NCBI GenBank assembly: GCA_031360095.1
Contig: JANMAY010000055.1
Location: forward strand, 175 to 64,174
Source: Gemmatimonadaceae bacterium
GTDB taxonomy: Bacteria; Gemmatimonadota; Gemmatimonadetes; Gemmatimonadales; Gemmatimonadaceae
DNA: 64,000 nt
Direction of reading: 5' to 3'
In this document: positions 2,152 through 63,278 of the stretch, one piece after another
Numbering within the stretch: position 1 is the first letter of the stretch
Layout of the letters: each line of letters begins with the position of its first letter
Translations under genes and position numbers: made by a program
Notes under the pieces: generated by a model
Seen by the model: only the letters and a program-made list of their open reading frames with translations
What the model was told of the DNA's origin: nothing
Database searches by the model: none

Positions 2152-4361
<2,210 letters not shown>

Positions 4362-4365
<4 letters not shown>

Positions 4366-5801
4366 TGTATTCGGGAATTGGCTGATCGAGGAATGAATTC
4401 GGTGACTCGTGTGCTCCGGCGCGCGGCCTCGCGAACGGACACCCCCGCTGGCAAGTCTCCCAGCGCGCGCGCCTGCACGAGCAGGTTGCCGAGCACCGTG
4501 GCTTCTTCCGGCCCGGCCAGCACCCGCCGGTCGCATGCATCCGCAGTGAGCTGATTGAGCAGCGTGTTGCGCGCACCGCCGCCCACGATGTGGACATCTG
4601 TGATCGGCGATGCGATGAGGCCTTCAAGTTCGCGCAGCGTCGATGCGCAACTCTCGGCAAGGCTGTCGAGGATCAGCCGCACCAACGCGCCGCGGCCTTC
4701 GCCGAGCGTGATCCCGTTCACGACGCACGCGGCGTGGATCTTCTCGGCCATGCCACCGCGCTCACCGAACTGGGGCGCGTCGAGATCGAGCGTCCCGTTG
4801 GACGTCGGGGCATCGGTCGCCTCGGCGAACAGCACGTCGTACGAGGGACGTTCGCCCTTCTCCGCCCACTCTCGACAGCACTCTTCGAGCACCCACATTC
4901 CCGTGCGATTCTTGAGGAAGCGAATCGTGCCGTCCAGACCGGACTCGTTCGTAAAACCTGCCTCACGAGCATGGTCGCTTGTGATCGGCGCATCGAGCTC
5001 CGCACCCACCAGCGACCACGTTCCGGAGCTCACGAACGCCCATCCGCTTTCCCCAGAAGCGGGCACCGCGGCAACGGCGGCCGCCGTGTCGTGCGCACAT
5101 GTCGCGATCACGAGCGGCGCGCTCGCATATCCATCCGGAAGCGCGCCAGGCACCGCCGCGCCAAGGGTCGTGCCGGCCGGTACGATGCGCGGCCAGCGCG
5201 ACGGATCGTCACCGATGGCGCATATCAGTGGCTCGGACCACTCGCCCGTGCGCACGTTCATGAGCTGCGTCGTGCTCGCCATGGTGCGCTCCGCCACCGC
5301 CTTTCCGCTGAGCAAAAACAGGAAGTATTCGGCGATGGTCAGCCGGGTCGCCGTTCGCGCGAGCAGCGCCGGCTCGTCTTCGACATCGGCCACGATCTGC
5401 GAGATCGTGTTCAGCTCGAGAAACTGAATGCCCGTTTGCCCATAGAGCGCCTTGGCGCCACCGGCGAGACGAGTGGCCGTGGCGAGTCGCCCCTGTGTCC
5501 GCGAATCGCGATAGGCATACGGGCGGCGCACCGCGACGCGCTGTTCGTCGAGCGGCACATAATCGACGGCCCACGAATCAACCGAGATCGAACGCAGCGA
5601 GGGCACGGTACTCAGCGCCTCGCTGACGCCGCGCCGGATCTCCGTCCACATCGTCGCGATGTCCCAGTACAGATGCCCCTTCTCCTCGAGGATTGGCGTC
5701 CGAAAGCGATGGACTTCCTGTGTGCGCATGCAGTCGCCATCCCATGTGCCAACGATCGCGCGCCCGCTCGATGCGCCGAGATCGATGGCCAGATAGCTCA
5801 T
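4362..5801 (-). CDS. rhaB: Rhamnulokinase (FGGY carbohydrate kinase family)
   Basis: 479 aa. N-terminal motif MSYLAIDLGASSGRAIVG and C-terminal FGGY motif HIVGGGARNTLLNQLTADA. It sits between the isomerase and aldolase genes with ATGA overlaps on both sides. Confidence 0.85.
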
Positions 5802-7060
5802 TCCGTGCGCTCACTTGCCTTGCGGGCGCGGTATCCCGATGCGCGAAAGGCGGCGATCGGATCGAGTGCTCCGCCGGCGCGGCGTCGCGCTTCGGCGACA
5901 AGCGGTCGCGCGTCGGCCTCGAACGCGTCCTTGAGCGTGCGCTCCGCCATCAGCACGTCACCCGCATCCTGATACTCCGCGAGCGCTCGGCGATCGACGA
6001 GCAGCGCCTTCGCGTACGCGAGCTGCAGCTGATCGACCGTCTGCAGCAACGCTTCGATTGGATCCTTGATGTTGTGGCTCTGGTCGATCATGTACGCCGG
6101 CCGAAATCCCGCGAGCTTCTCGCGCTCGGCGAGCACGAGCTCGTGGAATACGAGAAACAATCCGTATGGCTTGATGGATCCAGCCGTGAGATCGTCGTCG
6201 CCGTACTTCGAGTCGTTGAAGTGAAAGCCGCCGAGCTTTCCTGCGCCCAACAGCCGCGCCACGACGAGCTCGATGTTCGTGTTTGGCAGATGATGGCCGA
6301 GGTCCACGAGACACTGGGCGCGGTCGCCGAGCGACTGCGCGAGCAAGAGCGAGGAGCCCCAGTCCTGCACCACGGTGGCGTAGAAGGCCGGCTCGTACGG
6401 TTTGTGTTCAGTGAACAGTCGCCATGTGCTCGGCAGCGATGCATACACGTCGCGGAGACAGTTGAGCACGCGGTCGAAGCTTCCGCGCAGCGACATCTGG
6501 CCGGGATAATTCGAGCCGTCCGCCAGCCAGATGGAAATGGCGTCCGACCCCAGCGCCTGACCGATTTCGATCACATGCTGATGGTGTTCCACGGCTTGGC
6601 GACGCACGGCGGGATCGGGATGGCTGAACGATCCGAGCTTGTAGCTCAACGGCTGGCCCGGCTGATCCTGGAACGTGTTCGAGTTCACGGCATCGAACGC
6701 CAACCCGAGCAGGGCCGCCTGCTCGCGCAGCGCGGCGGCGTCTTCGGGCTCGTCCCACGGGATGTGCAGCGATACGCGCGGTGTCGCGCCGGTGAGCTGA
6801 TGGACGACCGCCGCATCTTCGAGCTTTTCGGCGATCGTGCGTGGCTCACCGGGACCGGCGAATCGGCCGAACCTGGTACCGCCGGTGGTGAAGGCCCACG
6901 AGGGCAGCGCCACCTCGAACTTTCGAACGGCGACGATGCACTCGTCCATCTGCACGCCCCGTCGCGCGAGCCGATCCGACAGCGCAGCGAGATCGTCCTC
7001 GTGCGCGTGAAGCGTCCGCGCGTCTGCGGTGGTCTCGATGGTCGGACGACTGAATGTCAT
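5798..7060 (-). CDS. rhaI: L-rhamnose isomerase (xylose-isomerase-like TIM barrel, RhaI type)
   Basis: ORF 5798-7102 trimmed to the ATG at 7058-7060 (MTFSRPTIETT...), giving 420 aa. It resembles the ~430-aa Pseudomonas stutzeri/actinobacterial-type rhamnose isomerases. It is the first gene of the rhaB-rhaEW-ABC operon. Confidence 0.75.
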   Translation of the reverse strand: MTFSRPTIETTADARTLHAHEDDLAALSDRLARRGVQMDECIVAVRKFEVALPSWAFTTGGTRFGRFAGPGEPRTIAEKLEDAAVVHQLTGATPRVSLHIPWDEPEDAAALREQAALLGLAFDAVNSNTFQDQPGQPLSYKLGSFSHPDPAVRRQAVEHHQHVIEIGQALGSDAISIWLADGSNYPGQMSLRGSFDRVLNCLRDVYASLPSTWRLFTEHKPYEPAFYATVVQDWGSSLLLAQSLGDRAQCLVDLGHHLPNTNIELVVARLLGAGKLGGFHFNDSKYGDDDLTAGSIKPYGLFLVFHELVLAEREKLAGFRPAYMIDQSHNIKDPIEALLQTVDQLQLAYAKALLVDRRALAEYQDAGDVLMAERTLKDAFEADARPLVAEARRRAGGALDPIAAFRASGYRARKASERTE

Positions 7061-44315: not shown

Positions 44316-45515
44316 TTACTGCACCGCGTTGATCATGTCGAAGATCGGCAGATACATGGCCACGACCATGCCGCCCACCACCACGCCAAGAAACACGATC
44401 ATGATCGGCTCCATGAGGCTCAGCAAGCCAGACACAGCGGCGTCGACCTCTTCATCGTAGAAGTCGGCGATTTTCGAAAGCATCTCGTCCAGACCACCGG
44501 TCTGCTCGCCCACCGCGATCATCGAGATCACCATCGGCGGAAACACCGCGGACTTCTGCAGCGGTGCGGAGATCGTTTCACCACCGGCGATCGACGTCCG
44601 CGACTCCATGATTGCGTCGGAGATGACGCGGTTGCCCGCCGTCTTCGCCGTGATCTCGAGGCCATCGAGAATCGACACGCCCGAGCCGATCAGCGTACCG
44701 AGCGTCCGCGTGAAGCGCGACACCGCCGACTTTCTGAGCACGTCGCCAAGCACCGGCATTTTCAGCATCAGTTTGTCGATCGCGAGCTTCCCGCTGCTCG
44801 TGGCGTAATACTTTTTGACGAAGAAGACGAACGCGAAAATCGCGGCGAGCACGATGTACCAGAAACTCGTCAGGAACTTCGACATGCCGATGACGACGCG
44901 CGTCGGGAACGGCAGCGCCATGCCGACGCTCGCGAACATCTTCTCGAACACCGGAATCACGAAGATCAGCAGCACGATGATCGCGATGGCCGCCACGCTC
45001 GAGATGACGGCCGGATAGATCATCGCGCCCTTCACCTTGCGCACGAGCGCATCGTTCTTTTCCATGAACGTCGCGAGCCGCATGAGGATGGTGTCGAGAA
45101 TACCGCCCGCTTCACCGGCGGCGACCATGTTCACATACAGCTCGCTGAACGCCTTGGGATGTTTGCGCAGCGCGTCCGCCACGGTGTGACCGCTCTCGAC
45201 GTCGAACACGACGGCGTGCGTCACGTCCTTGAGCGCCTTGTTCTAGCTCTGCTTCGCGAGGATGTCGAGGGCCTCCACCAGCGGCAGGACGGCGTTGATC
45301 ATGGTCGAGAACTGCCGCGTGAAGATCACGATGTCGCGCATCGAGATACGGCCGCCGCTCTTTTTCTTCTTCGCGGTGGCGGTTTCGTCGATCTTCACGA
45401 CGTTCAGGCGCTGCTTTCTCAGCTGCGCGACGACGTCGTCCCGGCTCGGCGCGTCGATCGTTGCGGTGCGAAGGTCGCCGTTGAGGGCGCGGGCCGTATA
45501 GGTAAATGCTGGCAT
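44316..45515 (-). pseudogene. pilC: Type IV pilus platform protein PilC (GspF family) interrupted by one in-frame TAG
   Basis: ORFs 45243-45515 (90 aa, PilC N-terminus) and 44316-45224 (302 aa, remainder) are in the same frame. They are separated only by a TAG at 45243-45245. The continuous reading is ...LDILAKQS*NKALKDVTHAVVFDVESGHTVADALRKHPKAF..., totalling 400 codons including the terminal stop, the normal PilC length. Confidence 0.8.
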
Positions 45516-45537
45516 GGAGTGTCTCCTCGGTTTGATC

Positions 45538-45656
45538 GTAGGACGGTAGGACGGTAGGACGGTAGGACGGCCAGCCTCGGGACGTCCCTACAGTCGTTTC
45601 CGTTCTACTGTCCTACCGTCCTACTGTCCTACCGTCCTACCGTCCTACCGTCCTAC
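45538..45656. repeat. Inverted arrays of a tandem 8-bp unit: (GTAGGACG)x4 at 45538-45569 and (YGTCCTAC)x7 at 45601-45656
   Basis: Counted directly. The two arms are reverse complements of each other. The spacer contains the 10-bp palindrome GGGACGTCCC at 45579-45588. The array fills the pilT-pilC intergenic region, and the pilT stop codon (45653-45655) lies inside the last unit. Confidence 0.9.
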
Positions 45657-46801
45657 CTCTTTCCCGCCATCGCCCCACCCGACGCGCCGGGCTTCTTCGC
45701 GCCGTCGTCCTCGGGTGACTGGCCGATCATGCGCAGGAATTCGTTCGCGTCGTGTGTCGCACGAAGGCAATCGTCCAGCGCGACTTCCCGGCTCATGTAC
45801 AAGCCGTACAGCGCGTCGTTCATGGTCTGCATACCATACTTCTTTCCGGACTGCATGGTGCTGTAAATCTGGTGGATCTTGTCGTCGCGGATCAGCGCAC
45901 GCACCGCCGGCGTGACGACGAGAATCTCCGCGGCCATCGCGCGGCCGCGGCCCTTCGCCTTGGGCAGCAGCGTCTGCGTGATGATGCCCTCGAGCACGAA
46001 CGCGAGTTGCGCGCGCACCTGGCTCTGCTGGTGAGCCGGAAAGACATCGATGATGCGATTGATCGCCTCGGCCGCGCTGTTGGTGTGCAGCGTGGCGAAG
46101 GCAAGGTGGCCTGTTTCGGAGATCGTGAGTGCCGCCTGGATCGTATCCAGGTCGCGCATCTCACCGATCAGAATGACATCGGGATCCTGACGCAGCGCGT
46201 ACTTGAGCGATGCCTGGAAGCTCTTCGTGTCCGTTCCCACCTCGCGCTGGTTGACGATGCAGCCCTGGTGGCGGTGAATGAACTCGATGGGATCTTCGAC
46301 CGTGATGATGTGACCCTTCCGCTCCTTGTTGATCTTGTCGATCATCGCGGCGAGCGTCGTGCTCTTGCCCGACCCCGTAGGGCCCGTCACGAGCACCAGA
46401 CCGCGCGGCCGTTCCGCCATCTTGCGGATCACGTCGGGGAGCTTGAGCTCGTCGAAGGTCTTGATCGAAAACGGAATCTGCCGGATCACCATCGAGACAC
46501 AGCCGCGCTGCTTGAAGCAGTTGCCGCGAAAGCGCGCAAGGTTCTGGATGCCGAACGAGAAATCCAGCTCGTCCTCCATCTCGAACCGCTTCTTCTGATT
46601 TTCGGTGAGCACGCTGTAGGCGAGTTGCAGCGTATCCTTTGGCGACATCACGAACTCGAGATTCGAGTTCTGGATCTCGCCGTCGATGCGCATCTTGGGG
46701 CGCTCGCCGGCAGTCACGTGCAAGTCGGACGCGTCGCGCTCGATCATCTCCTCGAGCAGCACGCGGAGATTGACGCCTTGGGCTGATGCGGGTGCGGTCA
46801 T
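45653..46801 (-). CDS. pilT: Type IV pilus retraction ATPase PilT
   Basis: ORF 45653-46831, whose first codon is a TTG; the ATG at 46801 is preferred. Walker A is GPTGSGKSTT, and the PilT-type motifs TLHTNSAAEAINRIID and PAVRALIRDDKIHQI are present. Confidence 0.9.
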   Translation of the reverse strand: MTAPASAQGVNLRVLLEEMIERDASDLHVTAGERPKMRIDGEIQNSNLEFVMSPKDTLQLAYSVLTENQKKRFEMEDELDFSFGIQNLARFRGNCFKQRGCVSMVIRQIPFSIKTFDELKLPDVIRKMAERPRGLVLVTGPTGSGKSTTLAAMIDKINKERKGHIITVEDPIEFIHRHQGCIVNQREVGTDTKSFQASLKYALRQDPDVILIGEMRDLDTIQAALTISETGHLAFATLHTNSAAEAINRIIDVFPAHQQSQVRAQLAFVLEGIITQTLLPKAKGRGRAMAAEILVVTPAVRALIRDDKIHQIYSTMQSGKKYGMQTMNDALYGLYMSREVALDDCLRATHDANEFLRMIGQSPEDDGAKKPGASGGAMAGKR

Positions 46802-47078
46802 TGTGTGTGAAACGAGGATCGGGCCATCCAACGGACGGCAGCCATGTCGCGGTCTCGCGGCATGGGCGTCCTACAGCAGGACGATTGAGGCCGGTGGAGC
46901 GGAACAGACGCGTCACTCAGCAGACACCGGAGAAAGCTACTTTCAGCGGCGCCCCGCCACAGCCTCCGCAGCGCTGGAGACCCCGTTACCTGCCCGCTGG
47001 CGTGTGGCTAGCCTCTTGCCATTCTTCCCGGGGCGCTTTAGGCGCCTTGGATCCTCACTCCTTTCGACGCTCATCCGC

Positions 47079-47990
47079 ATGCCCGGCACGCACTTCACCC
47101 CCGCCAGCTCCACGGACGCCGTATCGGCCATAGCGTTCGGTGCCTTGCAGGGCCGGGTGGAGCAGGTTCTCAACGCCATTGACGACGGCGTCTTCTGCCT
47201 CGATGCTGAAGGTCGCGTGATTTTCATCAACGAGGCAGCCGTTCGACTGCTCGGATTCACGACTCGCGAGGTGATCGGACAGTCGATGCACGCGCTGTCA
47301 CATCACCACTATGCAGACGGCTCGGTATTTCCCGCGGAATCGTGCCCGATCCTCTCGTCAGTGACCGATGCAGTCCAACAGCGCGTTGGCGGCGACACGT
47401 TCTGGACGAAAGCCAAATCGCCGCTGCCCGTGGATTACACGAGTATCCCGATCAAGGACGGGCGGATCGTGGTAGGAGTGGTCGTCACGTTCCGGGACAT
47501 CAGCGAGCAGCAGCGGTCGGAAGAACAGGCGGCCCGGCTCAAGGGAGAGCGGGCTGCACGTGCCGAGGCGGAAGCGGCGCGAGAAGCCTTGCGAGTCAGC
47601 GAAGCGCGCTACCGGTTCCTCGCCGAGGCGATCCCGGTGCTGATCTGGACGGCTCGGCCAGACGGTGGGTTGGACTACGTGACACAACGCGTTGCCGACT
47701 ACTTCGGAACGTCCGTCGAGCAACTGCTCGCCGATGGGTGGAAAAACGTCGTTCACCCCGACGATCTCCCTGGCGTCGCGGAGCAGTGGGGCCATTCACT
47801 CAACACCGGGGAACCGTACAAAGTCGAGTTCCGACTCCGGGCGGCCGACGGTACGTTCCGCTGGCATCTCGCCCGTGCGCTCCCCCAGCGCGACGCCGCA
47901 GGCAAAGTCGTTCACTGGTTCGGAACCAATACCGAAATTGAGGATCAGAAACAGCAGTTGCTGCAGCAGACGTCACGGATGATCGTGTAG
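47079..47990 (+). CDS. Stand-alone tandem PAS/PAC domain protein (no output domain)
   Basis: ORF 46686-47990 trimmed to the ATG at 47079, giving 303 aa. Two PAS-like modules (DGVFCLDAEGRVIFINEAAVRLLGF... and IPVLIWTARPDGGLDYVTQRVADYFG...HWFGTNTEIEDQK) are joined by a charged coiled segment. The upstream part of the ORF overlaps pilT antisense. Confidence 0.7.
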   Translation: MPGTHFTPASSTDAVSAIAFGALQGRVEQVLNAIDDGVFCLDAEGRVIFINEAAVRLLGFTTREVIGQSMHALSHHHYADGSVFPAESCPILSSVTDAVQQRVGGDTFWTKAKSPLPVDYTSIPIKDGRIVVGVVVTFRDISEQQRSEEQAARLKGERAARAEAEAAREALRVSEARYRFLAEAIPVLIWTARPDGGLDYVTQRVADYFGTSVEQLLADGWKNVVHPDDLPGVAEQWGHSLNTGEPYKVEFRLRAADGTFRWHLARALPQRDAAGKVVHWFGTNTEIEDQKQQLLQQTSRMIV

Positions 47991-54073: not shown

Positions 54074-55027
54074 TCATTGATCCATGATCAACGACAGCGC
54101 AACGTCTCCGACGATCTGTAGACTCTTCGCCGAGACATGCTCCATCGTATCCCCGAGCGTGTGATGGTAGTTCGGAGAGGAGTAGCCTGCCGGCCCGAGC
54201 GGACCGTAGTCGATGTCGAGCACGTCGATCACGCGATATCCCTTCTGGAGGAACGGCACGTGGTCGTCGGTGATCGCCGACGCATACGCGCGCGGGATGA
54301 AGTACTTGGCGTATCCCAGGTCCGCGGCCTTTTGCCACACTCTGCTCACGACCTCCGGCGCGCCGTTCATCGAGTTGGGCTCCTGAAGGATGTTGAGGTC
54401 TGCGTCGCCGATCATATCCCAGAGCACGCCGTAGATGGGCCGGTAGTCGGGTGACGGCGGATGCGCAACGAAGTACTGCGAGCCGAGGAGCACGTCGGTG
54501 TACGGTGGATCGAAGCTGGTGCCGTAGTCCTCACCATCCACGAGCAACAGGTCCACGCCGATGTTGGGCGGTGTCTTCTTCATCACGTCGGCAAGCGCAA
54601 TGAACAACCCGACGCCGGAGGCGCCGTCGTTGGCGCCGAGAATGGGCGTCGCGCGGTTGCCGAGCACTGGATCGCTGTCGGCCACAGGACGCGTATCCCA
54701 GTGCGTGATGTAGAGCACGCGCTGCGTGGCGTGCGGACGAAAGCGCGCGAAGATGTTTCGCAGCGCGATCGAGTCGCCCTTGAGCGTTTTGTGCTTCCAG
54801 CGCTGCTCGATGACGGTGTCCGCGCGCTGCTTCATCATCGTCACGATCCAATCCCCGGCCTTCTCGGCTCCGGCAGTGCCAGGCACGCGCGGACCGAAGG
54901 CGACCTGCTGTCGCACGTACGAAAGCGCCGAATCACCGTTGAAGGCGGTCTTCGGCCGGCTCGGCAGCTTATCGCAGGCGGTGAGGCTGATCGCAGCAGC
55001 GAGAATCATCAGCACGCGAATCGTCAT
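54074..55027 (-). CDS. M28-family lipoprotein, glutaminyl cyclase-like
   Basis: 317 aa. The lipobox is MILAAAISLTAC. The motifs ITHWDTRPVADSDP, GANDGASGVGLFIALADVM and LLLVDGEDYG are those I recall from bacterial type II glutaminyl-peptide cyclotransferases and related M28 peptidases. Confidence 0.65.
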   Translation of the reverse strand: MTIRVLMILAAAISLTACDKLPSRPKTAFNGDSALSYVRQQVAFGPRVPGTAGAEKAGDWIVTMMKQRADTVIEQRWKHKTLKGDSIALRNIFARFRPHATQRVLYITHWDTRPVADSDPVLGNRATPILGANDGASGVGLFIALADVMKKTPPNIGVDLLLVDGEDYGTSFDPPYTDVLLGSQYFVAHPPSPDYRPIYGVLWDMIGDADLNILQEPNSMNGAPEVVSRVWQKAADLGYAKYFIPRAYASAITDDHVPFLQKGYRVIDVLDIDYGPLGPAGYSSPNYHHTLGDTMEHVSAKSLQIVGDVALSLIMDQ

Positions 55028-55033
55028 TGATGG

Positions 55034-55149
55034 GTAGGACTGTAGGACGGTAGGCCGGTAGGACGGTAGGACGGTAGGACGGGAGAGAGCGGAGCGGGGG
55101 AGACCAGCGGGAGCGGATCGTGTTGCAGTTTGCGGTCCTACGGTCCTAC
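55034..55149. repeat. Second inverted array of the 8-bp unit: (GTAGGMYK)x6 at 55034-55081 and (GGTCCTAC)x2 at 55134-55149
   Basis: Counted directly. The left-arm units are GTAGGACT, GTAGGACG, GTAGGCCG, GTAGGACG, GTAGGACG, GTAGGACG. After a 52-bp spacer come two reverse-complement units. The element fills the gap between the sprA stop (55151) and the M28 gene start (55027). Confidence 0.9.
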
Positions 55150-55150
55150 G

Positions 55151-58100
55151 TCATTTCGGTTCCCCAAAGAACTGCACCTGCAGCACCGTCGACAGCACGA
55201 GCTGTGTCGCGCGACGGTTGAAGTTGTTGTCGTACGTGATCACACGCGAGCCCTGCAGCGTGAAGATTACAGTTTCGCTCAAGTCGGTGTCGGCATTGAT
55301 GCTCACCGCGCTGCGGCCGTTGTCGGCGAGGCGGCTCGTTCCCAGGCGCGCAAGATCGTTGATGTACGTGCTCGTGCGCGTCTGCTGCCACCCCACACGC
55401 GTGCGAATGTCGTTCTCGATGGTGAAGCCGAGGCTTTTCGGCAGCTTGAATGGACGGCCGATATCGAGGCTCACTTCCTCGGACCTTCCGTCGGCGACGC
55501 TGCCGGGAAGTGAATCGACGCGCGTCGTCAGTGTATAGCCGGCAGACGATGTGAGCCCGCGCCCGAAGCCCCACAGCACCGACGCATTGAGCGGGATGGT
55601 GCGCGTTCGTGAGCCGCGGAGCTCCGGTCGCTCACGGTTTACATCGCCGGGCAAAAGGGTGGACGCAAGGGAGCGCGCGTAGCCGGCGTTGGCGCCGACG
55701 GAGGCGAGAAATGGCAGCACCATTGCGGGCGGCTTCCAGTTCCAGCGAACGCTGACGTCGGGGAACACGGTCTGTGCGCCGTCGGCGACAGACTGCGCGT
55801 CGTCGGAGCGACGCGTCCAACTGCGCGTCGTGGTGCGGCGGTAGCGATTTACGAAGGCGACGTTTCCGGGAAAGAGAAACGACTGGCTCGCAGCGAGCGC
55901 CTGGGTGAGGCCGGTGGTCGCAGCGAGTTGGCCATTCGCCTGTCGAAACGCATCGATGCCTCCCAGTCCGAACTGCAGGCCGAGGGGCGAACCGTTGCTG
56001 GCGGCGTCGAACGCGGAGAGCAAGCTGCGATTGACGGTGATGTCGAGTGGCGCAAACACTCTGGCAAGCCGCCGAGCGAGCGAGGAATCCGCGCCGTAGA
56101 TCGTGAGGGCGCGGCCGAGATCGATCGTCACGCCGCCGCCGAGGTTCTGCGACACCGTGATACGGCGCGGCAATGTCTCCGTCACGGTGTTGCCGAACGT
56201 GAGACCGGCGAGCGAGCCGGCGTTCGGATCGCGCAGCATGCCGTACTGCGTGCCGAAGTCCACGCGCGGCTTGAACCACTGCGAGCGCTGTGGCGCGAAT
56301 GCCATCGACGTGAGCAGAGAGCGTTCGCGCTCCATCCCGACATTGGCGCCGAACAGCTGCGCGCGACTATCGGTAGCCGCTCGGGCAGCGGCGGTCGTAT
56401 CCCCATAGTCGCGGAGGTCGCGCAATGAGATGAAGTCCCAGCGCGCGGTGAGTGCGTCGGTAGGGCGGAACTCGAGCGTGCTCGCGTTGCGCCACAGGTT
56501 TTGTTCGGCGCGCGAGACGCGAGCGGAATCGTCGAACGCGGCGGCGGGCTTGAGAAACGAAAACCGCTGATCGGTACCGCGCACCACGCCGCTGGAGAAG
56601 CGCAGCACCGTGGGATTCCAGCGAAACAGCGTGGGTTGATTGAGGGTGTCCGCGAAGCGAAAGAATCCAGGCATGAACCTCGACGGCGAGCCAAGCAGCC
56701 CGGGCACGCGCGTGCGCCGCGCTTCCGCCGCGACGCTGTAGTCGAGGCTCATCGCAAAGTTGTCACTCACGCCTCGCTGATATTCGTTGCGGCTGTCGCC
56801 CGTGGTGTAGGTCGAGGTCAACCCGAGATTGTCCACCAGCGCGCTGACGAGCGGATTGCCCACAGGCGCCGTACGACGCACCGTGAGCGCGTACGTCGTG
56901 ACCCCCTGGGACGGAGCGCGCAGATTCTGCACTCCCGCGCCGGGAACGTCGGTGCCACTCAGGAACAGTGGTGTACTCGCCGCAGACACGTGCGTGATGG
57001 TGAGCGGCACGGCGAACCCGAAGCTCACCGGCAACAGCTTTTCCAGATGCACGGTGCCAACGAGATCGAACACGCGATCGTTCACGAAGCTCGGCTGGTC
57101 GGTGAGCTGGCGAAAGTACGGATCCTTCTTCGTGAACCCCACGCGAATGTCAGCGATGCCCGCCGCGGATAGCGCAACGCTCATCTGGCCGGCATATCCG
57201 GGATGGTTGACGACCTGGCCGAGCCGGATGTCGTCGACCCAGAGTTCGAGTGAATCGGCAGGGCCGATCGTGCTCGGTGCACCGCCCGTCGCCGGAAGGC
57301 GGACGAAGCCAACGGCCATCTCCTGCACCGCCGCGAGATTGGGCGGTGCCGCTCCCGGCTCGACGGTGTACACCATGTAGCCGCCGTCGCACGCGGCGTA
57401 GCGCTGCTGGCCGGAGATCGCGGGAATCGGCGATGCGTTCACCAGGGCCGCATCGGCACCTGTGCACGAGAGCGTGTCGCCCTTGTTCTGCAGATACGCG
57501 TTCTGGATGCGCTGTCGCAACTGGAAGAAGCGGTCGAAGTCCACCCGGACTTCGGGATTCCATGCCTCCTGCCCCGGACCACTGTTGACCGGCGTGCGAT
57601 AGAGATAAAAGTTGTTCGCATCGCGTCCGATCTTCACGTACATCTGGAGCTCTCCGCGATCACCCCATCCGTTGCGGCGTCCGCGCGCCCAGAGCCTGAG
57701 CTGCTGGTACCCCATGAAGCTCTGCTGGCCATTGGGAAAGCGATAATACGCTTCGGCTCGGCCATACACCGGAAGGTTGCCCGCCTGTAGACGCAGCGAG
57801 CGCTCGTTGATCTGTGTCAGCCCCGTCGTGAACTGCGAGGTGCGCGTGTCGGCTTCGTCGATCACGCCGGGGGGCGGCTGGTAGTCGTCGCCGCTGACGG
57901 TGGACTTGTCCGCCGTTCCGATCAGCGACGTTTGCGTATATCCACCGGCTGGCCGCTCGCCAGCGATGCCCGACAGCGTTTGCTCGTTGCGCTTGATCCA
58001 CGGCGCTCCGGTGAGCTTGAGGCGCGCGAGGGGAATCTGAATGAACTCATCGTCGCGCGCACCTGCCCCGCTCACCATCGTCACGCGCAGCGCACGAACG

Positions 58101-61100
58101 CGGCGCAGGAGCACGTCGTTGAGCGTGTCGTCGGCGAGGCGGAAGGGCACCTTCACCTGCACCCACTGAAGCGCGCGAGGGGTGCCCGTGGCATCCAGGC
58201 GCTGGACGAACCGCTTTCCGAATCGCACCCAGCGTTTTTGATCGCTGAGGTCGACGACGAAGCGTGTGATGCGCTCGCGATCGCGCACGCTGCTCGGCAA
58301 GTTGAGGACGTTGTCGAGATCGATGTCTTCCTCGTCGAGCTTGTTGTTGTGCACCGTGCAATTAGCGCGCGTGTCGCCAAGTCGCGCGACGACGTTCAGC
58401 GTGCCGGAGCAGAGGGGAACGTTGAAGGCGCGTGTTGTCCCCGCGCCGGTGTCGACGAGCAGCGTATCCGCGATGTCGCCCGGCAGTCCGGTGTCGTTCG
58501 CATCGGCGTTGAATGCGCGGGAGATGGGATCGCGCTCCGAATCCAGACGGTCGAATCCCTGGAGCTTTTTGCCACGAAAGAGCGAGTCCGGCGTGGAACC
58601 GGGCCGGACGACGAGCGTTTCCGGCGCGAATGCGACGGTGTTCTCGGAGATCTCACCGAGATCGAAGACGAGTGTGGGATTGGACGCACGGCGCGCCGCG
58701 CTCGTGTCGACGAGCGTCCAAAACTCGAGGTCTTCGACGCGCGAGAGATCGGCACCGGACGGACTGAGCACGGTGCGCACGGACCGAAATCGGCGACCGG
58801 ATGGCGCGTTGGCGACCGACCAGGCATACGTGCGCGTCGCAGGATCGTACCGGCCGCCGATGCTCAAAGGATACAACGTGAGCCAGAGCACCGTCTCATT
58901 CGACGAGAAGAGGCCAGCGGTGAGCGCATTCTGATCGATGCTGTCACCGCGCACGAGGACGTTCACCCCATCGGCCGAGAGGCCGTTGTTCTGAAATGCG
59001 ATGGTGGAGGCTCGGCGAAGATCGAACGGATTGACGCCGTATTTCCGCGGCAGGAGGTGTCCGTCGGCGGGTTGACTTGCGAGCGCCCAGTTCTGGTCGG
59101 AGAGACCGACGGTAATCCCTGCCTCGCCCTCGAAGCTTTCGATGAACGCCTGGGCCTGTGTGTTCAGCTGCGGGCGGCTGGTGGCGAATTCGCCTTGCAC
59201 GCTGAGTCGTGACGGCGTCGTGCTCTTCACGAACGGCAAACGATTCATCAGCCGGGTGAGCGGCGCGACCTCCCATCCGATCTGCCCATTCACGCCGGCA
59301 AGAAGCGACGACACCGGCTCGAAGCCGAGCTGCGGGCGAGTGAAGTTGGTTTTCTGCGACTGCTGGACGGCGATGAAATTCAGCTCGCCATTCGGGAGTG
59401 GGAGTGTGCTCGTCATGCCGAACAGCGTCGTGGGTGTGACGGCGAACAGCGGATTCTCTTCGAATCGAACGCTCACCGCGCGCTGGCGTGTGAACAGCGT
59501 GTCTGGCCGCGCGAAGGTGAGCCGGCCGAGCTCGTAGTCGACGCGATAGTCGACGTCGCGCACGAGCGGCCTGCCATCGAGCACGACGCGCTCCGATCCC
59601 CTGCGCACCTGCACGCTGCCGAGCATGACGGCGCCGCCGGTGGATTCGGTGCTGGCATCGGTCTCGTAGCGCACCTTCAGGCGATAGACGTTCGCGGGAT
59701 GCTGCGGCGAATAGAGGTATTCGCCCGGGGTGACGTAGATCGCGTCGTTACTCGGGTTGCCCGGCACGACAAGCCCCGAGTCGCGGCGGGCGAACGGCTG
59801 AAGGGAGGGAAAGATCACGAAGTGGTCGCGAATGATCCGTCCGCCGCTCGCCGCGCTCGCGCTCGATGCGGCGCCAAGGGAGGCCGCACTCGCGAGTCCG
59901 GCAGTGCCGCCGGCTGCTGCGCTGTAGTTCGGATCGGAGGGTCGTGGCCACAGGCGGTTCTCGATGTCGAAGCTCGCGGGGTTGGTGGCTTGCGCGAGGC
60001 CGAGCATCTGGAGGAACGTTGCGTACGATCCTGCGGCGGGCTTTTCCTGCTCCCCTGCTCCGCTCACGATGCGAAGCGTGGTCGTGGCGCGCACCAGCTC
60101 CTCGCCACCCACGCGATACACCGAGCGGATCTCGCGCCGAAACGCCGGCGTGCCAGGAAGCACGTTGGGATCGGACACGAGGTTCGCCTGCTGATCGGCG
60201 CTGCTGAACTGCAGATCGGGAGTTCCGCCGGTGGCGGGGTAGACGGTGTCGACGCCATTGATGCGAACGGTGTACGCGACGACGAGGCGCTCGTTGGTCT
60301 GATTGAGGGGGCGCACCAGCGCGAACCAGAGCTGCGACGGATCGAGATAGTAGTCGACGCCTTCGCGAAGTACGTCGTACGTCTGCCGGCCGCCACCCGG
60401 ATCTCCGATCAGGCGAAAGCGCGGCCCGTTGGGATTTTGCGGTTGGGTGCCGAACTGCACGCGGTACAGGAGGACGCGTCGTGGGCGCAGGGTGTCGGGG
60501 AGTGACGCGGCGAGGGCCGTGAGTTGGCGGCGGTCGAGAATGTCGATGTTCGGATACGTTCCGGTGAACAGCGTGGGATCGACGGTGAAGAAGAAGCGCC
60601 TCGGCTCGATCTGATTGTCGAGGATTTCGTGCTCGGCGCTCTGGCGGGTGCGGTCGGCGATGAGATACGTGCGCTCCTGTGCGATGTTGCCTTTCTGCTG
60701 GGCGGCGATTGCCTGGAGACGAAAGCGCCCCAGGCGTCCGTTTGCCTGGAGCCCGTAGTTTCCGCTCGGCACGCCGCTGGAGAGGAATCGCGTGGAGGGC
60801 AGCGCGAAGGCGACGTTGCCCACCTCCACGCGCTGAAGGCGGTCGGTGGCTTTACCCTGGTAGTAGATGTTCAGTGCATTCGACGCGTCGAACTCGCGCT
60901 GGGTGTCGTAGTCGACGTTCACGTGCACACGATCCGCCACGGTGCCGGTGCTTTGCATCGTGAACTGGAACTTGAAGTCCGGGGTCAGGCCGGGCCGACA
61001 TTCCACGCCGGGGATGAACTGGCCGGTGTTGCATTTCTCGTCGAGCCGGCGTTCACCTTTGGCCTCGATGCGGGTGCGAACGTCGACATTGAGGTCCGTA

Positions 61101-61315
61101 TTCGGCCCAAAGAGGCCCGGCTTTTTGCCCGTGTCGGCGGCTGGGGCGCGCGGGAGCCTGGGCTTTCGGCTCGAGTCGGCGCCGGGCGGATGCAACGTGT
61201 CCACCCGCACGGAGTCCACGCGCGGCACCGGTGTGGACGGCGGCTGCTGCGCGCTCGCGGGCGAAGGCATGGCGAACACCGCAATTGCGGCGACGAGCCG
61301 GAGAACGCGCACCAA
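55151..61315 (-). CDS. sprA: SprA-like giant outer-membrane protein (type IX secretion translocon family)
   Basis: 2054-aa ORF with a signal peptide (VLRLVAAIAVFAMPSPASAQQ). The N-terminal block NIYYQGKATDRLQRVEVGNVAFALPSTRFLSSGVPSGNYGLQANGRLGRFRLQAIAAQQKGN parallels the conserved SprA block (...LEAGNVSMP...GxQxLFG...QFG...AQQxS). The rest has beta-rich composition throughout. The start codon is TTG (61315) or the adjacent GTG (61312). Confidence 0.7.
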   Translation of the reverse strand: MVRVLRLVAAIAVFAMPSPASAQQPPSTPVPRVDSVRVDTLHPPGADSSRKPRLPRAPAADTGKKPGLFGPNTDLNVDVRTRIEAKGERRLDEKCNTGQFIPGVECRPGLTPDFKFQFTMQSTGTVADRVHVNVDYDTQREFDASNALNIYYQGKATDRLQRVEVGNVAFALPSTRFLSSGVPSGNYGLQANGRLGRFRLQAIAAQQKGNIAQERTYLIADRTRQSAEHEILDNQIEPRRFFFTVDPTLFTGTYPNIDILDRRQLTALAASLPDTLRPRRVLLYRVQFGTQPQNPNGPRFRLIGDPGGGRQTYDVLREGVDYYLDPSQLWFALVRPLNQTNERLVVAYTVRINGVDTVYPATGGTPDLQFSSADQQANLVSDPNVLPGTPAFRREIRSVYRVGGEELVRATTTLRIVSGAGEQEKPAAGSYATFLQMLGLAQATNPASFDIENRLWPRPSDPNYSAAAGGTAGLASAASLGAASSASAASGGRIIRDHFVIFPSLQPFARRDSGLVVPGNPSNDAIYVTPGEYLYSPQHPANVYRLKVRYETDASTESTGGAVMLGSVQVRRGSERVVLDGRPLVRDVDYRVDYELGRLTFARPDTLFTRQRAVSVRFEENPLFAVTPTTLFGMTSTLPLPNGELNFIAVQQSQKTNFTRPQLGFEPVSSLLAGVNGQIGWEVAPLTRLMNRLPFVKSTTPSRLSVQGEFATSRPQLNTQAQAFIESFEGEAGITVGLSDQNWALASQPADGHLLPRKYGVNPFDLRRASTIAFQNNGLSADGVNVLVRGDSIDQNALTAGLFSSNETVLWLTLYPLSIGGRYDPATRTYAWSVANAPSGRRFRSVRTVLSPSGADLSRVEDLEFWTLVDTSAARRASNPTLVFDLGEISENTVAFAPETLVVRPGSTPDSLFRGKKLQGFDRLDSERDPISRAFNADANDTGLPGDIADTLLVDTGAGTTRAFNVPLCSGTLNVVARLGDTRANCTVHNNKLDEEDIDLDNVLNLPSSVRDRERITRFVVDLSDQKRWVRFGKRFVQRLDATGTPRALQWVQVKVPFRLADDTLNDVLLRRVRALRVTMVSGAGARDDEFIQIPLARLKLTGAPWIKRNEQTLSGIAGERPAGGYTQTSLIGTADKSTVSGDDYQPPPGVIDEADTRTSQFTTGLTQINERSLRLQAGNLPVYGRAEAYYRFPNGQQSFMGYQQLRLWARGRRNGWGDRGELQMYVKIGRDANNFYLYRTPVNSGPGQEAWNPEVRVDFDRFFQLRQRIQNAYLQNKGDTLSCTGADAALVNASPIPAISGQQRYAACDGGYMVYTVEPGAAPPNLAAVQEMAVGFVRLPATGGAPSTIGPADSLELWVDDIRLGQVVNHPGYAGQMSVALSAAGIADIRVGFTKKDPYFRQLTDQPSFVNDRVFDLVGTVHLEKLLPVSFGFAVPLTITHVSAASTPLFLSGTDVPGAGVQNLRAPSQGVTTYALTVRRTAPVGNPLVSALVDNLGLTSTYTTGDSRNEYQRGVSDNFAMSLDYSVAAEARRTRVPGLLGSPSRFMPGFFRFADTLNQPTLFRWNPTVLRFSSGVVRGTDQRFSFLKPAAAFDDSARVSRAEQNLWRNASTLEFRPTDALTARWDFISLRDLRDYGDTTAAARAATDSRAQLFGANVGMERERSLLTSMAFAPQRSQWFKPRVDFGTQYGMLRDPNAGSLAGLTFGNTVTETLPRRITVSQNLGGGVTIDLGRALTIYGADSSLARRLARVFAPLDITVNRSLLSAFDAASNGSPLGLQFGLGGIDAFRQANGQLAATTGLTQALAASQSFLFPGNVAFVNRYRRTTTRSWTRRSDDAQSVADGAQTVFPDVSVRWNWKPPAMVLPFLASVGANAGYARSLASTLLPGDVNRERPELRGSRTRTIPLNASVLWGFGRGLTSSAGYTLTTRVDSLPGSVADGRSEEVSLDIGRPFKLPKSLGFTIENDIRTRVGWQQTRTSTYINDLARLGTSRLADNGRSAVSINADTDLSETVIFTLQGSRVITYDNNFNRRATQLVLSTVLQVQFFGEPK

Positions 61316-61454: not shown

Positions 61455-63278
61455 GTGAAGATAATCACCCGTTACGTCCTCCGGGAACACGCTGGCCCAC
61501 TGGCGTTCGCGTTCACTGCGCTGACGTCGTTGATGCTGCTGAACTTCATCTCCCGGCAGTTCGGGGAGCTGGTGGGCAAGGGGCTGCCGTGGAGCGTGAT
61601 TGGCAAGTTTTTCCTCCTGTCCATTCCGTTCACGGTGGCACTCACGGTACCGATGTCCGTGCTCGTGGCAGTGCTGTTTGCGTATAGCCGGCTGGCGGCG
61701 GAGAACGAAGTAACGGCGCTCAAGGCCAATGGGGTGAGTCCGTGGCGCATGGTCACGCCGGCGATTCTGGCCGGGCTGGTGATGTCGGCGCTGCTGCTGG
61801 CCTTCAACGACCAGGTGCTGCCGCGTGCCAATCACGAGCTCAAGACGCTGCAAGAGGACATCTCGCAGACGCGACCCACGCTGCTGCTCAAGCCGCAGGT
61901 GATCAACGCCGTCTCGGAAGGAAAGTTGTACTTGAAGGCGGGATCGATCGACAATGGTGGCGGCCGGATGAAAGAGGTGGTGATCTACGATCTCAGCGAG
62001 TCGACGCGGCGGCGCACGATCTACGCGCAGCGCGGCGCGATTGCCTTCGCGCCCAATAAAGTCGACCTCGATCTCGATTTGTATGATGGCGAGATGCAGG
62101 AGGTGTCGACCGAAAAACCCACTCAGCTGAGCCGGATGTTTTTCAAGAAGGACCGCATTCGCGTTCGAAATGTCGGGCGGACCTTCTCGCAGAGCGCATC
62201 CGATTCGTCAAGCAAGGGCGATCGCGAGATGAGCATCTGCGAGATGCAGAAGCGTCTCTGGTCCGAGGAGACGCGCTACGACATGGCGAAGCGCGAATAC
62301 GCGCAGGTGCAGCGAGCGACGAATCGGTCGCTCGATCAACTGCCGCCGAGCTTCCGCCGCAAAATCGCGGAGCCACATGGCATCGGGTGGGTGTACTGCA
62401 CGCTGATGAACAAGGTGGGAGCGGTGCGCACCGCACACGCTGCCGACGTGGGCGCTGTGGTGTTGCACGCGTGGCAGGACACGGTGCCCCGGAAGCCGGT
62501 CGTGCAGCCGGCGATCGTGCGTGTGGAGTCGACGGCTGCCACGCCGCCGGTACGTCCGGAGACGAGCACCGCGGCCAAGCCGGTCATGATCACCCCACTG
62601 CAGGCACCAGCCACCGTCCCTGCGCCGGTACAGCAACCGGTGCAGCAACCGCTGCAGCAACCGCTGCAGCAGCCGGCGGTGGGAGTTGGCCAGCCCGTGT
62701 TGACGCCATTGCCCGCGGGCACTGTTCCCGGGGTCACTCCGGGTGTTCCAGGACCGGCGATGGATGCACAGGCCAGAATCGCCGCGCAAGCTGCGGCGGC
62801 GATGGCGACCGGGAACGTGTCCACTGAAATGACGATGCTGACTGCACGAAAGATGGAGGCGAAGGTGCGGTTGGACATGGCACAGCGTGCGCGCAATCGC
62901 TACGACATCGAGATTCACAAGAAGTTCTCGCTCGCGGCTGCATGTTTGATCTTTTGCATCGTGGCGCCGCCGATTGCGCTGCGCTTTCCGCGCGGCGGGG
63001 TGGGGCTGGTGCTCGTCGTGAGCCTGGTGGTGTTCGCGCTGTACTACGTGGGGCTGATCGGCGGCGAGTCATTGGCCAACAAGGGAATCGTGCCGCCATT
63101 TTGGGCGATGTGGGGCACAAACGTCATCATGACGCTGGTGGGGCTCGTGCTGCTGTTGCGCATGGGATACGAGAGCAACACCGGTCGCGGAGGCGGTGTG
63201 CGTGAATGGCTCGACAACATGCGGGCGCGGCGGGAGGATCGGCGAGCGGCGTCGCTTCGTGCGAAGGCCGCGGCATGA
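61455..63278 (+). CDS. LptF/LptG-family (YjgP/YjgQ) permease with a long Pro/Gln/Ala-rich insertion
   Basis: ORF 60942-63278 trimmed to the in-frame GTG at 61455 (VKIITRYVLREHAGPLAFAFTALTSLMLLNFI, the canonical family N-terminus). It has three N-terminal and three C-terminal transmembrane helices. At 607 aa it is much longer than the usual ~360-400 aa. The upstream part of the ORF overlaps sprA antisense. Confidence 0.8.
   Translation: MKIITRYVLREHAGPLAFAFTALTSLMLLNFISRQFGELVGKGLPWSVIGKFFLLSIPFTVALTVPMSVLVAVLFAYSRLAAENEVTALKANGVSPWRMVTPAILAGLVMSALLLAFNDQVLPRANHELKTLQEDISQTRPTLLLKPQVINAVSEGKLYLKAGSIDNGGGRMKEVVIYDLSESTRRRTIYAQRGAIAFAPNKVDLDLDLYDGEMQEVSTEKPTQLSRMFFKKDRIRVRNVGRTFSQSASDSSSKGDREMSICEMQKRLWSEETRYDMAKREYAQVQRATNRSLDQLPPSFRRKIAEPHGIGWVYCTLMNKVGAVRTAHAADVGAVVLHAWQDTVPRKPVVQPAIVRVESTAATPPVRPETSTAAKPVMITPLQAPATVPAPVQQPVQQPLQQPLQQPAVGVGQPVLTPLPAGTVPGVTPGVPGPAMDAQARIAAQAAAAMATGNVSTEMTMLTARKMEAKVRLDMAQRARNRYDIEIHKKFSLAAACLIFCIVAPPIALRFPRGGVGLVLVVSLVVFALYYVGLIGGESLANKGIVPPFWAMWGTNVIMTLVGLVLLLRMGYESNTGRGGGVREWLDNMRARREDRRAASLRAKAAA
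62625..62672 (+). repeat. Four tandem 12-nt units (CCGSTRCAGCAR) encoding PVQQ-PVQQ-PLQQ-PLQQ
   Basis: Counted directly. The repeat is in frame within the permease gene and lies inside its low-complexity insertion. Confidence 0.9.

Follow-up and report, generated by a model that had tools for sequence, protein, structure and literature searches.

Inverted octamer arrays at a pilT-pilC junction

We analyzed a 64,000-nucleotide stretch of DNA from a soil Gemmatimonadaceae bacterium (assembly GCA_031360095.1, contig JANMAY010000055.1; hereafter, the window), which carries two inverted tandem arrays of an octamer between a pilT-like and a pilC-like gene. The upstream gene (45653-46801, minus strand) encodes a T2SSE ATPase (PF00437) that public sources label PilT through its 90%-identity cluster, and the downstream gene (44316-45515, minus strand; ATG at 45513-45515) encodes a PilC-like protein (T2SSF; PF00482 in orthologues). 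The element between them lies on the same strand and comprises, in the order of the pilT-pilC mRNA, a 5' arm of seven GTAGGAC(G/A) units (45600-45656), a loop (45570-45599; a spacer of about 31-32 nt) that includes the palindrome GGGACGTCCC at 45579-45588, and a 3' arm of four perfect units (45538-45569), which read CGTCCTAC on the minus strand and GTAGGACG on the plus strand. The PilT-like open reading frame (ORF) terminates in ...AMAGKR followed by TAG (45653-45655), and this stop codon is part of the first sense-strand unit. At the other end, the array stops 9 nt before the pilC Shine-Dalgarno sequence GAGGAG (45523-45528, minus strand), and the ATG follows 7 nt after the latter.

Tandem Repeats Finder recovered both arrays on the plus strand, one at 45538-45570 (period 8, 4.1 copies, 100% match, unit GTAGGACG) and the other at 45600-45657 (period 8, 7.2 copies, 90% match, unit CCGTCCTA), in agreement with an initial annotation made from the sequence, which had described inverted octamer arrays with the stop codon inside a unit. 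On this strand the inverted units can be written CYGTCCTA, and the first unit of the 45600-45656 array is degenerate (ccgttcta); on the sense strand, the innermost unit of the seven-unit arm is the degenerate GTAGAACG. The window contains 15 exact copies of the octamer, where 1.04 would be expected, and none of 100 shuffles reached this count. An isolated copy of GTAGGACG is found in the pilT leader, at 46867-46874. A CRISPR array was rejected, as it had been in the initial annotation, because the octamers are contiguous and have no spacers between them.

Predicted fold of the transcribed element

The sense (minus-strand) RNA of the element has the layout (GUAGGACR)6-GUAGAACG-loop-(CGUCCUAC)4 and a predicted folding energy of -99.9 kcal/mol (z = -8.88), with none of 200 shuffled sequences as stable. 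In this fold, the arms are predicted to pair as a near-perfect stem of about 32 bp for which several registers are possible, which supports the stem first proposed from the letters. The two-tier G-quadruplexes proposed alongside it fared worse. Since the unit holds GG tracts and no GGG, its G-quadruplex potential is weak: for four units, the prediction is marginal (-5.7 versus -3.0 kcal/mol, a gain of about 3-4 kcal/mol), and in the paired element this gain vanishes, as the hairpin outcompetes the quadruplex and leaves its predicted contribution negligible.

An Rfam search of the whole window at the gathering threshold gave no matches, and a permissive search returned sub-threshold, generic hairpins resembling miRNA precursors alone, on both strands. 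Scanning of positions 45200-46000 revealed neither terminator-like sites (hairpin plus T run) nor a sigma-70-like promoter. Classification as an intrinsic terminator was rejected, as no U/T run follows the stem and the consensus scan gave no sites.

Copy-number change and unit replacement at the same junction

A metagenome contig from ENA (L116) is 99.3% identical to window positions 44569-47668 (3.1 kb). Apart from six substitutions and one 1-nt indel, it differs by a deletion of exactly two units (16 nt) in the pilT-proximal arm, which has five units there and seven in the window. The 1-nt indel is located at window position 46825, 24 nt upstream of the pilT ATG. The initial annotation had regarded the arrays as slippage-prone and had also raised the possibility of an assembly artefact. 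The former is borne out by the two-unit difference between such close relatives; the latter is dismissed by recovery of the element, two units shorter, in an independent contig, by the presence of the unit in many metagenome-assembled genomes (MAGs) of separate studies, including Mb-scale contigs, and by related arrays in the finished genome of a cultured strain (Gemmatirosa).

We also compared the junctions of other members of the 90%-identity PilT cluster, for which percentages are pilT nucleotide identity to the window. The site that reads (GTAGGACG)7..(CGTCCTAC)4 in the window is occupied by (GTGAACC)n..(GGTTCAC)n heptamers in L202, L203 and L204 (94-95%), near-identical contigs with differing unit numbers, and by (GTACGAAC)4..(GTTCGTAC)6 in L199 (86%), whose loop GACGYCCGAGGCWGGC is related to that of the window. 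A different palindromic repeat, in one or two copies, is present in L200 and L201 (86%), a plain 65-nt spacer in L205, L207 and L208 (84-86%), and TAA, 6 nt and ATG in L206 (87%). All three array versions, of the window, L199 and L202-L204 types, fold far better than their shuffles (z from -4 to -9.6), and all array-bearing versions have a common right-hand boundary, TAC followed by GATC or by GCGAC. Furthermore, the loop motif GTCCCGAGGCYGGCC of the pilT-pilC element is also found in the loops of L199 and L009, and the window's innermost degenerate units, GTAGAACGGAAACGAC, correspond to the outermost ones of L202, GTGAACCGGAAACCG.

The simplest reading of these comparisons is that of one ancestral composite element in which unit types would have been expanded and contracted in each lineage, with the two arms changing in concert. 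Since the arms are complementary for each unit type at this junction, structure has been kept while sequence changed. Between relatives, whole units are gained and lost, as expected of replication slippage, and both the overall layout and its location at gene ends are retained. Elements also persist over longer times: two species that share 77-81% nucleotide identity along 5.5 kb of syntenic DNA both have an orthologous one between the same convergent genes, with nine units and a decayed partner in one species, and four plus five units with a related loop in the other.

A dispersed family of arrays at gene ends

The octamer arrays are not peculiar to the pilus genes. A second element is present in the window at 55034-55149 (minus strand), between a sprA-like gene (55151-61315, minus strand; 2054 amino acids) and a gene for an M28 peptidase / glutaminyl cyclase lipoprotein (54074-55027, minus strand). 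Its 5' arm in the mRNA (55135-55149) consists of two GTAGGACC units and begins 2 nt past the TGA at 55151-55153; a 54-nt spacer (55081-55134) separates it from a 3' arm (55034-55080) of six units, two of them degenerate, and the ATG of the peptidase gene lies 6 nt beyond the element. At the same junction, a relative with an 89%-identical M28 peptidase has a solitary (GACGGTCT)8 array directly past the TGA, and another with an 81%-identical peptidase has no array.

To survey the family, we searched for three tandem units in one genome per species; copies per genome and taxon shares are lower bounds. At least 115 loci were found, among the matches listed mostly in Gemmatimonadota MAGs, often with many loci per genome and with at least 30 in a single MAG (Bin_109). 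Several Bacteroidales MAGs constitute a second lineage, with long GTAGGACG arrays mixed with GTAAGACT and GTAGGAGG, and the matches listed also include scattered arrays in Patescibacteria, Chloroflexota, Actinomycetota and others. Only two IMG/VR phage contigs carry three tandem units, and a phage origin was rejected because the unit is almost never found on such contigs.

The arrays have a fixed polarity. Among the Gemmatimonadota loci listed, adjacent arrays follow the order G-rich (GTAGGAC) then C-rich (GTCCTAC) in 19 pairs and the reverse order in none, an order that is identical when read from either strand; on a finished Gemmatirosa plasmid, all of at least 12 arrays sampled over 150 kb, which are built of other 7-9-mers, are likewise G-rich first. 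The inverted C-rich array usually lies 25-110 nt beyond the G-rich one. With a duplex of -30 kcal/mol or stronger as the criterion, a complementary partner was detected within 160 nt downstream in 47 of the 97 arrays listed, versus 0 of 97 upstream control segments.

The initial annotation had suggested tabulating arrays relative to gene ends, and the arrays were found to start at stop codons. Using genes called by a test of third-position G+C content (GC3) on stop-to-stop ORFs, not by a gene finder, we observed that in 49 of the 88 arrays listed a coding ORF of the G-rich strand has its stop in the interval from 16 nt ahead of the array to 27 nt into it, and that an ORF ends at the C-rich side in only 2 of the 88. 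In 29 of these 49 cases the stop is the array's own TAG, located in unit 1 (n = 17), unit 2 (n = 6), unit 3 (n = 4) or unit 4 (n = 2). An array can supply the stop since a period of 8 puts TAG in all three frames within three units; its C-rich complementary strand has no stop codon in any frame. Paired arrays are found between co-directional genes and also between convergent genes with both stops abutting the arms. In one MAG, the loop motif GGTGAACGGCGTT is present in many copies, two identical loops being 3 kb apart. The pilT-pilC element is thus one copy of a dispersed Gemmatimonadota family, a lineage-wide set of tandem-repeat-armed hairpins in which a G-rich array at the stop of the upstream gene is usually followed by an inverted C-rich array.

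Comparison with known repeat systems

Dispersed arrays of short tandem units at gene ends have long been known in cyanobacteria, and the GGGGA(C/T)T repeats of Nostoc and Anabaena were named STRR in earlier literature. Together with the GGGAATC arrays of Xanthomonas (about 186 sites), these heptamers have been described as arrays of 2-26 copies found at about 180 sites in each genome, biased to non-coding DNA, with the G-rich strand as coding strand and within 0-50 bp of a stop codon or overlapping it (Rehm et al., 2015; PMC4692102). The same study reported 70-75 pairs per genome, "always" convergent, and heptamer arrays that remain single or paired from one close species to another, although their length and sequence change; it linked them neither to surface genes nor to insertion sequences, and found no function (PMC4692102). 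The octamer is likewise a short dispersed unit (two elements in 64 kb, at least 30 loci in Bin_109), stop-proximal on the coding strand in both window elements, with convergent pairs. It differs from the heptamers in its 8-nt length, in having GG instead of GGG and hence weak G-quadruplex potential, and in its phylum. Unlike them, it also contains TAG, stops all three frames and is often the gene's own stop, and at one site it was replaced wholesale between 95%-identical genomes. The family therefore has all the defining features of the heptamer arrays except the GGG tracts that give G-quadruplexes, and adds a new unit and a new phylum to a known type of stop-proximal repeat, to which no function has been assigned. 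The initial statement that no described element has this unit holds for the unit itself, which as a tandem repeat appears in no paper of the searchable library (the octamer alone matches primers only), but not for the kind of element, which is known with other units.

Repetitive extragenic palindromic (REP) sequences are imperfect palindromes of 20-40 bp with a 6-13 bp stem and a terminal GTAG or CGTC tag, and are considered to influence mRNA stability as RNA elements (Di Nocera et al., 2013; PMC3733652). As in REPs, bacterial interspersed mosaic elements (BIMEs) and REPINs, the octamer elements are high-copy extragenic hairpins, mostly 3' of genes and between co-directional or convergent ORFs, which carry GTAG/CGTC tags and often form inverted dimers with GTAG outward. 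Unlike REPs, their arms are tandem 8-mers without an internal palindrome. Of the features of a miniature inverted-repeat transposable element (MITE), the inverted ends are present, and no direct repeat flanks either window element; at the second one, no convincing target-site duplication was observed, as the AATGACG near both ends is 6 nt out of place. The 6-nt spacer of L206 represents a near-empty site that is too diverged (87%) to define the element's boundaries. A blastn search of the element against plasmids gave no match, possibly because of the low-complexity filter.

Similar to intrinsic terminators, the element is a G+C-rich stem directly after a stop codon; it differs from them in having no U tract, a stem four to five times longer than usual, and a ribosome-binding site with a co-directional gene immediately after it. 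A last resemblance is to the intervening sequences of 23S rRNA (helix 25/45), which share terminal inverted sequences giving a long stem and tandem short units. In that of Coxiella, RNase III cuts a terminal stem of 28 bp, and the 5' part has tandem heptamers of variable number (PMC4990558). In contrast to these, the window elements lie in mRNA spacers, have no ORF in the loop, and have a stem that is a prediction.

Intervening-sequence protein genes nested between arrays

In the non-Gemmatimonadota loci, each gene for an intervening-sequence protein (PF05635; S23p, "four helix bundle protein") is located between an upstream purine-rich array and its downstream inverted copy. In two Bacteroidales MAGs and one Patescibacteria MAG this gene is flanked by GTAGGACG-type units, and other copies have AATTGTTA or TAATGNN units. 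The same nesting was observed in an independent sample of plasmids, from Gemmatirosa kalamazoonensis, as (GGGCAGGA)4, PF05635 gene and (CTCCTGCC)4, from Nostoc edaphicum, as (GTAGGGA)8, PF05635 gene and (TCCCTAC)5, and from Anabaena, Geminocystis, Stanieria, Picosynechococcus and Riemerella; and also in the helix-45 intervening sequence of Azospirillum 23S rRNA, with purine-rich, quasi-tandem arms. The taxa with nested genes thus include Bacteroidota, Patescibacteria, Gemmatimonadota and Cyanobacteriota, with three of the sampled PF05635 copies weak or atypical. Nested loci were delimited at L024 461-1185, L088 5624-6241, L052 500-985, L081 5095-5545, L076 5290-5880 and L209 1330-1880, and were also seen in L216, L218, L212, L219, L220, L223 and L221. 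The cassettes often lie within operons (cas6/cas4, cas10/cmr3, ribonucleotide reductase subunits) and at the 3' end of glmS, where, in one MAG, the protein keeps its native ...KSVTVE end and the first unit provides the TAG stop. A literature search on intervening-sequence proteins and tandem repeats returned nothing on flanking arrays.

In Gemmatimonadota, no PF05635 gene was found beside GTAGGACG arrays in about 85 loci examined, nor in the window, so that the evidence for a link to such cassettes comes from other phyla and from a single Gemmatirosa locus, which has another unit. The Gemmatirosa kalamazoonensis plasmid NZ_CP007129.1 has many inverted arrays clustered in 100 kb (960-1060 kb; L213-L214), with units GGGACTC, CGCAGAGGA with a conserved loop GAACCAA..TTGGTT, GAGCGTG and ACAGGATGA; no such arrays are present in a 50-kb stretch at 500-550 kb. 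GGGACTC is one base from the GGGAATC of Xanthomonas. It is possible that the window elements are ORF-less relatives, or landing sites, of intervening-sequence-like cassettes. A broader proposal holds that cassettes made of a purine-rich 7-9-mer array, an optional PF05635 gene and an inverted array insert across phyla precisely at operon stops and in 23S helices, with stems that RNase III excises from the transcript, and that the paired octamer arrays are their form without an ORF, so that octamers, heptamers and rRNA intervening sequences would be one phenomenon; we regard this unification as doubtful.

Proposed role and alternatives

Bacterial RNase III has little preference for sequence and cleaves long RNA duplexes that are near-perfect, stable 3' stems such as the REP elements of the mal operon stop exonucleases, and REP stems near stop codons can disturb termination. 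It is therefore to be expected that a 32-bp stem reaching from the pilT stop to within 9 nt of the pilC ribosome-binding site is cut or blocks decay. We tentatively favor the view that the element is a slippage-prone, REP-like intercistronic RNA stem with a structural role in RNA, which, by analogy, probably acts as an RNase III or stability element that separates neighboring messages. Once pilT-pilC is transcribed, the arms would form a near-perfect duplex of about 32 bp that slides between registers and would represent a default RNase III substrate and a barrier to 3'-5' exonucleases. By being cut or by blocking decay, this duplex would uncouple two cistrons that are presumably translationally coupled in the relative with a 6-nt spacer (L206): the stem would set the 3' end and stability of pilT, and pilC would be expressed from its own Shine-Dalgarno sequence on a processed or read-through transcript. 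The working principle would be that of REP/BIME elements and of the stems at the ends of 23S rRNA intervening sequences. Because one arm has more units than the other, the stem could shift its register, for example while the first units are covered by a terminating ribosome. As for polarity, a G-rich arm that comes first would close incoming ORFs, given that it has TAG in all three frames, and would ensure that the C-rich, Rho-attracting RNA emerges with its pairing partner already made; the fixed polarity can, nevertheless, be explained without any function.

Several observations weigh against an RNA role of this kind. In the sense-strand arm, the A-linker variants lead to A.C mismatches in the sense RNA and to G.U pairs in the antisense RNA, a pattern that does not favor selection on the sense transcript. 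A complementary partner is missing for about 40-45 arrays, which are solitary, so the hairpin is not the whole story for the family, and the arms of the second window element are poorly matched (z = -1.2, no better than shuffles). The junctions of L200, L201 and L205 have either no array or a palindrome that does not fold significantly, and in more distant PilT relatives (58-83% amino acid identity) the spacer is mostly 15-40 nt long and free of repeats, with other short tandem repeats in a few (L128, L146, L150 and L163). With most relatives repeat-free at this junction, the element is dispensable and not required for pilus gene control. Finally, hairpin-templated repair could keep the arms complementary without selection.

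This last mechanism belongs to the main rival, which we judge somewhat unlikely, namely that the arrays are neutral or selfish simple-sequence DNA shaped by slippage and hairpin-templated (quasipalindrome) correction, with position and polarity left over from purifying selection against C-rich arrays that extend ORFs or load Rho. It would account for differences in unit number, and even unit sequence, between genomes 94-99% identical, for the absence of arrays from many equivalent junctions and for the many solitary arrays; the search near arrays gave no trans-acting gene, and the analogous heptamers had no function found (Rehm et al., 2015; PMC4692102). It fits less well with the retention of one unit by hundreds of arrays from many genera although the coding DNA beside them diverged by about 20%, with the retention of an array at two independent junctions despite a changed unit, or with use of the first in-frame TAG above expectation (17:6:4 for units 1, 2 and 3). 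Compared with this neutral account, it is less probable still that paired arrays are factor-independent or factor-assisted terminators or attenuators, bidirectional between convergent genes and reducing pilT-pilC read-through. The very stable stem directly past stop codons, and the pairs between convergent genes with both stops abutting in L023, L038, L091 and L093, would suit such a role, but the stem lacks a T/U run, the consensus scan gave no terminator, solitary arrays cannot form a stem, and both window elements lie between tightly spaced co-directional genes whose downstream partner has no promoter-like site.

Mobility appears highly improbable as an explanation, even though each unit is headed by GTAG and its complement by CGTC, the two tags of the REP superfamily (PMC3733652). 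A REPIN- or MITE-like element with inverted GTAG-headed halves, moved by a transposase, RAYT-type or other, that inserts it preferentially at the TAG/TA of stop codons, would fit the outward-facing heads, as in HH dimers, the repeated GGTGAACGGCGTT loops of one MAG with their identical pair, and arrays that start in register with a stop codon, as where the native GlmS C-terminus is intact. Against it, no unit is palindromic by itself, neither window element shows a target-site duplication, and orthologous positions persist between species. Moreover, a tblastn search with E. coli RayT gave a best E value of 0.32 in 1.44 Mb of locus sequence and no match on Gemmatirosa plasmids, and all-against-all clustering of array-adjacent ORFs revealed no recurrent transposase. 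The least credible proposal is a G-quadruplex, a protein-binding role or a phase-variation switch for the pilus genes, to which GG tracts 2 nt apart, G-quadruplex formation in vitro by the analogous GGG heptamers (PMC4692102), conservation of the unit across genera and variable copy number would lend themselves. The predicted gain of two-tier quadruplexes is, however, small and lost in the paired element, the unit is freely swapped at one site, arrays follow genes of every kind without favoring surface genes, and unit changes shift no reading frame or promoter spacing.

Whatever the function, a third, poorly studied phylum owns a large family of dispersed gene-end arrays, and the placement in register with stops, the G-rich-first order, the concerted replacement of units and the nesting of PF05635 genes constrain any explanation and make RNase III processing, cistron uncoupling and Rho avoidance testable hypotheses. 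As natural variable-number markers, the arrays also lend themselves to strain typing. They put short-read assembly at risk, and gene calling as well, the latter because of spurious RPTVLPSY-repeat ORFs on the C-rich strand.

Additional features of the analyzed loci

The pilC-like gene is interrupted by an in-frame TAG (45243-45245). Within 45243-45289 (minus strand), the window has this TAG where the 99.3%-identical contig L116 has GAG (Glu91), and two further changes within 45 nt convert the conserved motif MINAGLPLVQ into MINAVLPLVE; either the gene has recently become a pseudogene, or the assembly is of low quality here. Among the members of the 90%-identity PilT cluster, one was deposited as a Geodermatophilaceae (Actinomycetota) MAG with a Gemmatimonadota-like neighborhood, and its label is probably a binning error in the public record.

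At the second junction, the M28 / glutaminyl-cyclase lipoprotein gene has no visible Shine-Dalgarno sequence at its ATG. Homologues of the peptidase 71-79% identical to it are named Gemmatimonadaceae or Gemmatimonadota, and its pairing with a sprA-like gene is suggestive of a type IX secretion context in a Gemmatimonadota genome. A 12-mer array at 62625-62676 lies inside an ORF and is unrelated to the octamer elements.

The palindromic repeat of L200 and L201, GTCRTCCTGAGCG..GTCGAAGGAYC, was located at L200 4150-4215, L201 4150-4250, L146 about 4095-4200 and L083 2680-2720; it does not fold significantly alone, and in L146 it serves as the loop between (GTGAGTC)3 and (GACTCAG)3 arms. Finally, the Patescibacteria MAG locus L081 contains, at 5690-5790 and 5960-6050, a short G-rich/C-rich mini-element of GTAGGACG and a AATTGTTA-type repeat, which apparently lie inside a lysyl-tRNA-synthetase-like (EpmA/GenX-like) reading frame and leave it unbroken.

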